Made by a program: the position numbers and the translations under genes
Source: Escherichia coli
GTDB lineage: Bacteria; Pseudomonadota; Gammaproteobacteria; Enterobacterales; Enterobacteriaceae
DNA length: 39,954 nt
Strand: one strand, 5' to 3'
Assembly: GCF_003334255.1 (NCBI RefSeq)
Contig: NZ_QOWU01000053.1
Shown here: piece by piece, positions 16,556 to 17,393 of the stretch
Numbering within the stretch: position 1 is the first letter of the stretch
Layout: the number at the start of each line of letters is the position of its first letter
Notes under the pieces: model-generated
Database searches by the model: none
Told to the model about the DNA's origin: nothing
Seen by the model: only the letters and a program-made list of their open reading frames with translations

Positions 16556-16707
16556 ATTGCGCTCCTGATTGTTGCAGGTAGTGTCTCTCTTCGAAGCGGA
16601 TAAGTCAAAAACATATATGACTTAACGAATGTGTAAGTGCAGAGGAAGGTAATAGGTGTGAATTTTGAGTTGGCTATTCATTTGAAAGGAGGTCTGAATC
16701 AGGACGT

Positions 16708-16790
16708 AAAAAAACCGACTTTGCGTCGGTTTTTTACTTTCCAGCCCTGAGTTGGTGGCTCTGGCTGGAGTGAGAGAGTTCTTATCTAAC
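16708..16790 (-). ncRNA. agrB: Antisense sRNA AgrB (approximate ends)
   Basis: Minus-strand sigma70-like promoter TTGCAA (16820-16825) - 17 nt - TAGTAT (16797-16802), then about 83 nt to a hairpin ccgactttgcgtcgg plus U-run. Body is near-identical in sense to 17188-17220, so the RNA is complementary to dinQ mRNA. Confidence 0.55.
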
Positions 16791-16938
16791 AGCTCAATAC
16801 TATTAGCCAGTGGCTAACATTGCAAGAATTAGCGATTTCTTCAGCTGGCGGAGGGAGCACTTCGGTATATATCGCAGTGACGATTTATATACTTTCACTG
16901 GGTCATCGTCATATTAAGCCTTGTCCGAATCCGGATGT

Positions 16939-17021
16939 AAAAAAACCGACTTTGCGTCGGTTTTTTACTTTCCAGCCCTGAGTTGGTGGCTCTGACTGGA
17001 GTGAGATAGCCATCATCTAAC
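16939..17021 (-). ncRNA. agrA: Antisense sRNA AgrA (approximate ends)
   Basis: Second copy of the same unit: TTGCAA (17051-17056) - 17 nt - TAGCAT (17028-17033) promoter and identical terminator hairpin; more diverged from the dinQ segment than agrB. Confidence 0.5.
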
Positions 17022-17083
17022 GCATCAATGCTAATACCATACTGAAACTATTGCAAGGACGTGCTGGTTTTATAACCTGCATG

Positions 17084-17103
17084 TACTGTATGATTATCCA
17101 GTT
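17084..17103. promoter_or_regulatory. LexA box (SOS operator) upstream of dinQ
   Basis: tACTGTatgattatCCAGtt, i.e. CTGT-N8-CCAG, one mismatch from the CTGT-N8-ACAG consensus. Confidence 0.6.
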
Positions 17104-17294
17104 AGCTCTGAGGCATTTTCACTCTGGCAATGCGCATAAACGCTTTCAAAGTCCTGGTCAGAAGTACGGGTGGTGCCGTTAACTGATGCTCTGGCCGGAG
17201 TGAGAGAGTTCTTATCTAACAATGAGACATGCGCCGTGACAGGCAGTGGATGAGTAAGCGGATGCATTCTCACTCCATCGCATGGAGAAAACGG

Positions 17295-17378
17295 GTGATT
17301 GATAAAGCAATCATCGTTCTAGGGGCGTTAATTGCGCTGCTGGAACTGATCCGCTTTCTGCTTCAGCTTCTGAACTGA
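17295..17378 (+). CDS. dinQ: SOS-induced small membrane toxin DinQ (27 aa, GTG start)
   Basis: GTG at 17295 then IDKAIIVLGALIALLELIRFLLQLLN and TGA; a single hydrophobic helix matching the DinQ peptide as I recall it. Confidence 0.75.
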   Translation: MIDKAIIVLGALIALLELIRFLLQLLN

Positions 17379-17393
17379 TAGCGGAAACGTAAT

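Follow-up and report, generated by a model that had tools for sequence, protein, structure and literature searches.

The 872 nt between the arsR and gor genes, located at positions 16560-17431 of a 39,954-nt stretch of Escherichia coli DNA that was analysed as a whole and is termed the window in the following, contain a short repeat in three places, a LexA box and a reading frame of 27 codons. The question raised by this arrangement is whether it represents a type I toxin-antitoxin locus, as had been proposed in an earlier note made from the sequence alone, and which of two closely similar antisense RNA genes provides the antitoxin.

Identity and setting of the locus

A sequence comparison revealed that positions 16560-17431 are identical (872/872 nt, 100%) to the sequence between arsR and gor in E. 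coli K-12 MG1655; many other strains likewise contain it with 100% identity. The flanking genes arsR (16202-16555) and gor (17432-18784) are both located on the minus strand, and the whole window corresponds to the gadX-yhhI segment of MG1655. The RefSeq annotation places "dinQ: damage-inducible type I toxin DinQ" at exactly 17295-17378. With respect to the K-12 locus described by Weel-Sneve et al. (2013) and Kristiansen et al. (2016), the flanking genes and the feature coordinates are the same and no difference was detected. The assignment of the region to dinQ-agrAB, a chromosomal type I toxin-antitoxin locus of E. coli K-12, can be regarded as virtually certain; the evidence includes minor shortfalls only and nothing that contradicts it. 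Some part of the locus is present in 5423 of 5426 complete E. coli genomes.

The locus and its interpretation are already known and well studied, and neither is new. The present data are the re-identification of a characterised model locus, which shows that such loci are recognisable from raw sequence and adds nothing further; the allele switching and the deletions described below are the sole parts with some potential novelty. This analysis itself established the anatomy of the locus, its identity to the K-12 sequence, the matches to RNA and protein families, the energies of pairing and the direction in which the structure switches. Published experiments on the identical sequence are the source for the transcription starts, the control by LexA, the mRNA processing, the translation, the toxicity and the cleavage by RNase III.

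Elsewhere in the window, small RNAs of the Rfam families GadY (1308-1421, minus strand, 150 bits), ES205 (7200-7271, minus strand, 105 bits) and ES036/CssrF (25798-25838, minus strand, 42 bits) were detected. An IS5 copy that splits a pseudogene in the yhiS region (11477-13792) and an ISEc1-family transposase gene at the end of the window (39569-39954) are ordinary K-12 features.

The agrA and agrB genes

The Rfam model RF02891 (AgrB), with a gathering score of 40, matched two units on the minus strand over its full length. The agrB gene (16706-16789; 108.4 bits, model positions 1-84) encodes the cognate antisense antitoxin in K-12, and the agrA gene (16937-17020; 106.2 bits) encodes a paralogue whose 5' block contains mismatches in this strain. 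Both genes comprise 84 nt, in agreement with the earlier proposal of two minus-strand units of about 83 nt, and 78 of the 84 positions are identical. As all six differences are confined to the first 26 nt, hairpin 1 and the terminator hairpin (minus strand, 16735-16709 in agrB and 16966-16940 in agrA) are the same in both units, and the claim of identical hairpin terminators was thereby confirmed. In the predicted fold of each RNA, hairpin 1 and the terminator follow an unstructured 5' tail. The two genes are located on the strand opposite to dinQ and do not overlap with it, agrA lying 81 nt and agrB 312 nt upstream of the dinQ transcription start. A repeat search additionally detected a 114-nt direct repeat with a period of 231 nt (16692-16805 and 16923-17036, 88% identical).

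The agrB promoter (16797-16825, minus strand) consists of the -35 hexamer TTGCAA (16825-16820), a 17-nt spacer and the -10 hexamer TAGTAT (16802-16797), and the agrA promoter (TTGCAA-17-TAGCAT; 17028-17056, minus strand) is arranged back to back with the dinQ promoter. A distance of 7 nt separates each promoter from the downstream 5' end of the Rfam match. The predicted TTGCAA-17-TAG(T/C)AT promoters were recovered as described. The composite promoter pattern occurs twice in the window, compared with 0.01 matches expected by chance. Consensus-like -10 and -35 elements and a mapped start have been published for agrB, along with primer-extension starts for dinQ, agrA and agrB and the detection of both small RNAs on northern blots (PMC3567139). 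An independent northern blot of AgrB is also available (PMC4681348), so that minus-strand transcripts of about the expected size are documented.

In a generic consensus scan of the region, the promoters and terminators of the agr genes went undetected. The promoters were missed because their hexamers match eight of the 12 consensus positions, the threshold being nine; for the terminators, our guess is that the scan probably extends the A/U-rich stem into the T-run. This outcome is a limit of the tool and not evidence against the promoters and terminators. The RefSeq record contains no ncRNA feature for agrA or agrB.

The dinQ promoter, transcripts and peptide

A LexA operator, TACTGTATGATTATCCAGTT, was identified at 17084-17103 on the plus strand. 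It has the form CTG-N10-CAG with the half-site TACTGTAT, is the single such site in the 39,954-nt window and does not vary among the 19 intact loci sampled (see below). The operator is located 194 nt before the dinQ start codon. The earlier note had placed a LexA box upstream of the DinQ peptide; the box is indeed present, but it is not merely upstream, as it overlaps the likely dinQ -10 hexamer TATGAT (17089-17094) and the transcription start G17101. The published heterology index of this operator is 4.83, and a second, weaker operator with an index of 13.82 was reported nearby (PMC3567139); the latter was not located near dinQ in our search. Northern blots have demonstrated that dinQ transcripts are UV-induced from a promoter carrying the LexA operator(s) (PMC3567139).

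The dinQ transcription start was assigned to G17101 because Kristiansen et al. (2016) number the Shine-Dalgarno sequence as G184-G187, and with this assignment all landmarks published by Weel-Sneve et al. (2013) and Kristiansen et al. (2016) map exactly. Transcription therefore begins 87 nt upstream of the block complementary to AgrB, and not downstream of 17220, the case that the earlier note had named as incompatible with its proposal. The primary mRNA (+1 to +331; 17101-17431, plus strand), the 3' end of which is at 17431, is translationally inert, and its sequence matches the published landmarks. The translatable dinQ-b mRNA begins at the +44 processing site (U44; 17144) (PMC3567139, PMC5066626). 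In the numbering of PMC5066626, the plus-strand leader contains element 1 (U16-C28; 17116-17128), which pairs with element 2 (G94-G106; 17194-17206) in the +1 mRNA and constitutes the upper part of the S1 lock, and element 3 (U167-U178; 17267-17278), which sequesters the Shine-Dalgarno sequence in a hairpin with element 4 (A182-G187; 17282-17287). Element 4 includes the Shine-Dalgarno sequence GGAG (G184-G187; 17284-17287), and the GUG start codon follows at nt 195-197 (17295-17297). The hairpin terminator SL9 (A295-U325; 17395-17425) was recognised as an inverted repeat, by the terminator scan and by landmark mapping; it is situated just past the gor stop codon, and gor converges on it from the other strand. 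Transcript ends have been reported at 0, +44 and +125, of which only the +44 species is translated (PMC3567139). The shorter RNA that begins at +125 (17225), downstream of the AgrB target, was described in 2013 and is translationally inert (PMC3567139).

The dinQ coding region (17295-17378, plus strand) specifies a peptide of 27 amino acids, VIDKAIIVLGALIALLELIRFLLQLLN, that starts with GTG, as the earlier note had claimed, and is identical to WP_001295215.1, annotated by RefSeq at the same coordinates. The GGAG motif is located 7 nt before the GTG codon. The peptide matches the NCBIfam equivalog model NF041472 (toxin_DinQ; E = 1.4e-14, 54 bits, cutoff 30) and belongs on this basis to the DinQ family of small hydrophobic single-helix toxin peptides. 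The 27-aa form initiated at GTG was shown to be a toxic inner-membrane peptide that depolarises the membrane and lowers ATP; deletion of agrB, but not of agrA, resulted in UV sensitivity, which was reversed by a stop codon in dinQ (PMC3567139).

The dinQ coding regions of strains AF10 (L010 888-974) and CM2 (L012 1273-1359) comprise 87 nt instead of 84 nt and specify a 28-aa peptide (WP_077250934.1). In several RefSeq genomes, a minus-strand "hypothetical protein" is annotated across the dinQ leader or the agr region (for example L013 1072-1245, L021 772-945 and L014 775-990), and an equivalent 59-aa open reading frame is located at 17094-17273 on the minus strand of the window; in view of the known RNA features there, this is probably a spurious gene call.

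Two alternative explanations of these features were weighed. The repeats and hexamers might reflect chance or a neutral tandem duplication without transcripts of its own, a view with which the negative result of the generic promoter and terminator scan would be compatible. The probability of this explanation is close to nil. The best 32-mer direct repeat of the region matches at 32 of 32 positions, whereas 100 shuffled sequences reached a maximum of 22 of 32, and chance is likewise opposed by the twofold occurrence of the promoter pattern; furthermore, the Rfam covariance matches are far above the threshold and the units are conserved in 5423 of the 5426 genomes. A neutral duplication had already been refuted by the published northern blots and primer extension of the agr RNAs (PMC3567139; PMC4681348). 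The other alternative accepts the locus but assigns its product to a longer, 49-aa reading frame with an ATG at 17229, or to an internal ATG, instead of the 27-aa peptide. Such a frame is present at 17229-17378, and the vector-expressed constructs DinQ II-IV were toxic as well (PMC3567139). Nevertheless, this assignment is very improbable, as the sole good Shine-Dalgarno sequence is the one preceding GTG 17295, the product of the +44 mRNA in vitro has the size of peptide V, the agrB mutant becomes UV-resistant again when a stop codon is placed at Lys4 of the 27-aa frame (PMC3567139), and the 27-aa form is the one covered by the NCBIfam equivalog model. The 27-aa peptide initiated at GTG is accordingly retained as the product of dinQ.

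Complementarity between the antisense RNAs and the dinQ leader

The AgrB target in the dinQ mRNA (G88-A119; 17188-17219, plus strand) is the third copy of the repeat and includes element 2 along with a polymorphic 8-nt block (17206-17213). The plus-strand sequence 17188-17221 shares 97% identity with 16758-16791 and 79% with 16989-17022, and the three sequences constitute a three-member repeat family of 34 nt. The earlier note had described three copies of one unit, and a third, plus-sense copy does occur in the dinQ leader; it comprises only the 5' 32-34 nt of the unit and not the whole unit. A comparison of the dinQ leader with the complete agr unit yielded only a sub-threshold Rfam match (17134-17219, 22.7 bits, E = 0.4), and a three-way alignment displayed no convincing similarity outside the 34-nt block. 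The description as three full copies of one unit was rejected on these grounds.

The 5' 32 nt of AgrB (16789-16758, minus strand) form 31 Watson-Crick pairs with dinQ 17188-17219, with a predicted energy of the 32-nt duplex of -57.0 kcal/mol, whereas AgrA forms 25 of 32 Watson-Crick pairs (29 of 32 with G-U pairs included) and a predicted 32-nt duplex of -41.5 kcal/mol. The duplex predictions thus support the earlier statement that agrB is almost perfectly complementary to the dinQ mRNA and that agrA contains more mismatches. Six of the seven positions at which AgrA does not form Watson-Crick pairs are clustered in or next to the 8-nt block. The energy gained by cofolding (ddG) was -39.5 for AgrB and -25.3 for AgrA with the +44 mRNA, and -32.8 and -18.6, respectively, with the +1 mRNA. 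Energies obtained with RNAduplex for the full-length RNAs (-87.0 and -71.5 kcal/mol) were discarded, as they are inflated by long interior loops and shuffled small RNAs average -45, and were replaced by the 32-nt duplex and cofold values. The computed pairing agrees with the published complementarity of 30/31 for AgrB and 25/31 for AgrA (PMC3567139) and with the finding that AgrB alone represses the +44 mRNA (PMC5066626).

Predicted folding and published mechanism

According to the published mechanism, LexA bound to the operator that overlaps the -10 region and the start restricts dinQ transcription mainly to cells with DNA damage. The primary mRNA of 331 nt is untranslatable, with its first 28 nt paired with nt 94-120 in the S1 stem, an arrangement in which elements 3 and 4 remain available to each other and close off the Shine-Dalgarno sequence in a hairpin. 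Loss of the first 43 nt releases element 2 for pairing with element 3 and thereby opens the Shine-Dalgarno sequence, so that the 27-aa DinQ is made from GTG and enters the inner membrane, causing depolarisation and lower ATP. AgrB, expressed constitutively from the opposite strand, pairs through the 32 unstructured nt at its 5' end with nt 88-119 of the +44 mRNA and sequesters element 2, upon which the Shine-Dalgarno hairpin re-forms and an RNase III substrate is created. AgrA, the tandem paralogue at a distance of one 231-bp period, does not repress translation of the +44 mRNA in K-12.

The structural steps of this mechanism have been addressed by SHAPE, compensatory mutations and S30 translation, which revealed the pairings 1:2 and 3:4 in the +1 mRNA with the Shine-Dalgarno sequence closed, the pairing 2:3 in the +44 mRNA with the Shine-Dalgarno sequence open, and its renewed closure along with formation of the RNase III substrate upon binding of AgrB to nt 88-119 (PMC5066626). 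In the window, the four elements of the 5' UTR are present with the published sequence, and the predicted minimum-energy fold of the +1 mRNA contains the pairings 1:2 and 3:4 and reproduces the long S1 stem and the Shine-Dalgarno hairpin. The predicted probability of the C173:G187 pair is 0.86 in the +1 mRNA, 0.68 in the +44 mRNA and 0.96 in the +44 mRNA with nt 88-119 blocked, and the folding calculations thus point in the right direction for the switch. The opening of the Shine-Dalgarno sequence in the +44 mRNA was weakly reproduced by ViennaRNA, the predicted probability of its being unpaired rising from 0.08 to 0.22. Although elements 2 and 3 are complementary by sequence, the published 2:3 duplex was not favoured in the ViennaRNA prediction for the +44 mRNA (P = 0.02), and the opening step therefore relies on the published SHAPE and translation data.

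Variation of the 8-nt block among E. coli strains

To place the K-12 sequence among other alleles, we compared 21 E. coli loci that were sampled for divergence and thus form a small set that is neither random nor phylogenetically independent. Positions 19-26 of the repeat, corresponding to the 8-nt block at 17206-17213 in dinQ, 16776-16783 in agrB and 17007-17014 in agrA, were polymorphic, and five alleles of the dinQ block were found in the sampled loci: GAGTTCTT, ATGCCATT, ATGCCCAC, ATACCATT and TAGTCGTC. In each of the 19 intact loci, one of the strain's own agr units matches its dinQ at 28-32 of 32 positions. Among the 16 genomes with two units, the better match is provided by the arsR-proximal unit in six (K-12, L007, L008, L011, L014 and L015) and by the dinQ-proximal unit, which occupies the position of AgrA, in ten (L005, L006, L009, L010, L012, L013, L017, L018, L020 and L021). 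Moreover, the agr pair GAGCTCTT and ATGCCATC was found in combination either with the dinQ allele GAGTTCTT (L007, L008) or with the dinQ allele ATGCCATT (L009, L010, L012, L017). Both units have kept their promoter and terminator in all 16 two-unit genomes. This pattern looks like gene conversion among three direct repeats with selection for one cognate antisense RNA, as judged from the alleles themselves. A literature search yielded no description of the polymorphic block or of a switch of the dinQ block between the agr paralogues.

These observations bear on the role of AgrA. The view that AgrB alone is the antitoxin derives from published dinQ-agrAB experiments in the K-12 background, and it might be specific to that lineage and not bound to the position of the gene. 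AgrA would then be an antitoxin of alternative specificity and not a dead or idle copy: the two agr units would carry different 8-nt specificity blocks, and the dinQ block would have been converted to match either of them, depending on the lineage. We lean slightly towards this reading. The division of better matches between six arsR-proximal and ten dinQ-proximal units, the occurrence of one agr pair with either matching dinQ allele and the intact promoters and terminators of both units argue for it, as does the practice of the database T1TAdb, which already selects whichever agr paralogue pairs best. Against it stand the restriction of the evidence to sequence comparisons, the composition of the sample and the weak contrast between the best matches within strains (29.9 of 32) and between strains (28.1 of 32). 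The latter statistic is weak because a small number of agr alleles is common to most strains, and the reading of an allele switch is based on the haplotype table and not on this statistic. An alternative specificity of AgrA complements the main explanation of the K-12 locus and does not replace it.

A wider proposal can be put forward tentatively, with rather less confidence. The three-copy repeat may constitute a recombining specificity system, in which gene conversion moves the dinQ block, the working antitoxin differs by lineage, the same repeats drive the loss of the system, and the block alleles perhaps tune the activation of the toxin mRNA. With respect to the last part, the 8-nt block is also located in the S1 lock stem of dinQ (17101-17128 paired with 17194-17220), and the predicted energy of the S1 duplex ranges from -25.9 to -34.6 kcal/mol across the natural alleles, with K-12 (-27.3) near the weak end. 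Since the predicted stability of the lock depends on the allele, the block may also influence how easily the toxin mRNA is activated. What has been concluded about AgrA in K-12 may not hold for other lineages, and for studies on specificity the locus provides a naturally occurring set of antisense-target pairs, some matched and some mismatched.

Structural variants of the locus

The segment comprising the dinQ promoter and leader (17023-17187) was detected in 4611 of the 5426 complete genomes, and the spacer between the agr units, which indicates the presence of two units, in 3836. By subtraction of these numbers, about 775 genomes carry a single agr unit, as exemplified by L003, L004 and L016. 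Relative to the window, the single-unit form corresponds to a 231-bp deletion of one repeat period (16733-16963), and the unit left in the three example loci matches dinQ at 29-31 of 32 positions.

A 408-bp fusion allele, exemplified by L002 601-1008 of strain DLL7555, was matched in one piece with at least 99% identity by 812 of the 5426 genomes. In this allele, an agr repeat is joined to the repeat of the dinQ leader, and the loss of 199 bp (approximately 17004-17202) has removed both the agr and the dinQ promoter, together with the LexA box and the first 105 or so nt of dinQ. These genomes retain an intact dinQ open reading frame, which continues to be annotated as the toxin; the arsR and arsB genes are also missing. 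Strain Nissle 1917 and the ST131-like strain 81009 carry the fusion allele, and strains 536 and NU14 do not. A study on AIEC strains called the locus "conserved" in NRG857c. In strain GF4-3 (L019, approximately 813-1513), an insertion of the IS200/IS605 type encoding an InsQ/TnpB-family protein cuts the dinQ leader about 35 nt after the transcription start, and no dinQ coding region is annotated at the interrupted locus.

As part of the tentative proposal of a recombining system, the repeats may drive the loss of the system by two routes, the 231-bp deletion leading to one agr unit and the 199-bp deletion to a promoterless dinQ gene. For genome annotation, these data indicate that automated procedures report a "damage-inducible toxin DinQ" in approximately 15% of the complete E. 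coli genomes, namely in those from which the LexA box and promoter have been deleted. Such side observations at the population level could be of modest value for researchers working on type I toxin-antitoxin systems.

Comparison with related systems

The dinQ/dql family was defined in 2016 (PMC5066626). Its dqlA/dqlB-agrB members, located on enterobacterial plasmids and chromosomes, share a homologous architecture of the 5' UTR, a DinQ-like peptide and an AgrB-like antisense RNA with the dinQ locus; the nucleotide identity amounts to approximately 67-80% over part of the locus, and the peptides are about 41% identical. IncX3 plasmids contain a single agrB gene and no agrA, and the toxin-antitoxin and plasmid-stabilising function of agrB-dqlB from the IncX3 plasmid pOXA-484 was shown in 2025 (PMC12317039). 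A blastn search of a plasmid collection detected dinQ- or dql-like sequences in 2730 plasmid records, of which 2377 represent conjugative plasmids. Escherichia accounts for about half of the 2730 records, many others are from Klebsiella and Salmonella, and the gene is usually annotated as dqlB (for example in H117 and H119-H129).

Beyond this family, the shoB/ohsC and zorO/orzO systems resemble dinQ-agr in having a divergent, non-overlapping antisense antitoxin gene 5' of the toxin mRNA and a long structured 5' UTR that needs processing, with different sequences and different peptides. These two systems are not known to be SOS-regulated.

The closest analogue in logic, not in sequence, is tisB/istR-1. 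Like dinQ, tisB is a LexA-repressed toxin gene with an inert primary mRNA that is activated by 5' processing, at +42 in tisB and at +44 in dinQ, and in both systems the antisense RNA is divergent and non-overlapping, pairs far upstream of the Shine-Dalgarno sequence and leads to RNase III cleavage, and the toxin is a small inner-membrane peptide (PMC5066626). The systems differ in the way translation is controlled, as tisB employs a ribosome standby site for which IstR-1 competes, whereas in dinQ mutually exclusive pairings open or close the Shine-Dalgarno hairpin. Unlike tisB/istR-1, with which it shares no sequence homology, the dinQ locus contains two tandem antisense paralogues.
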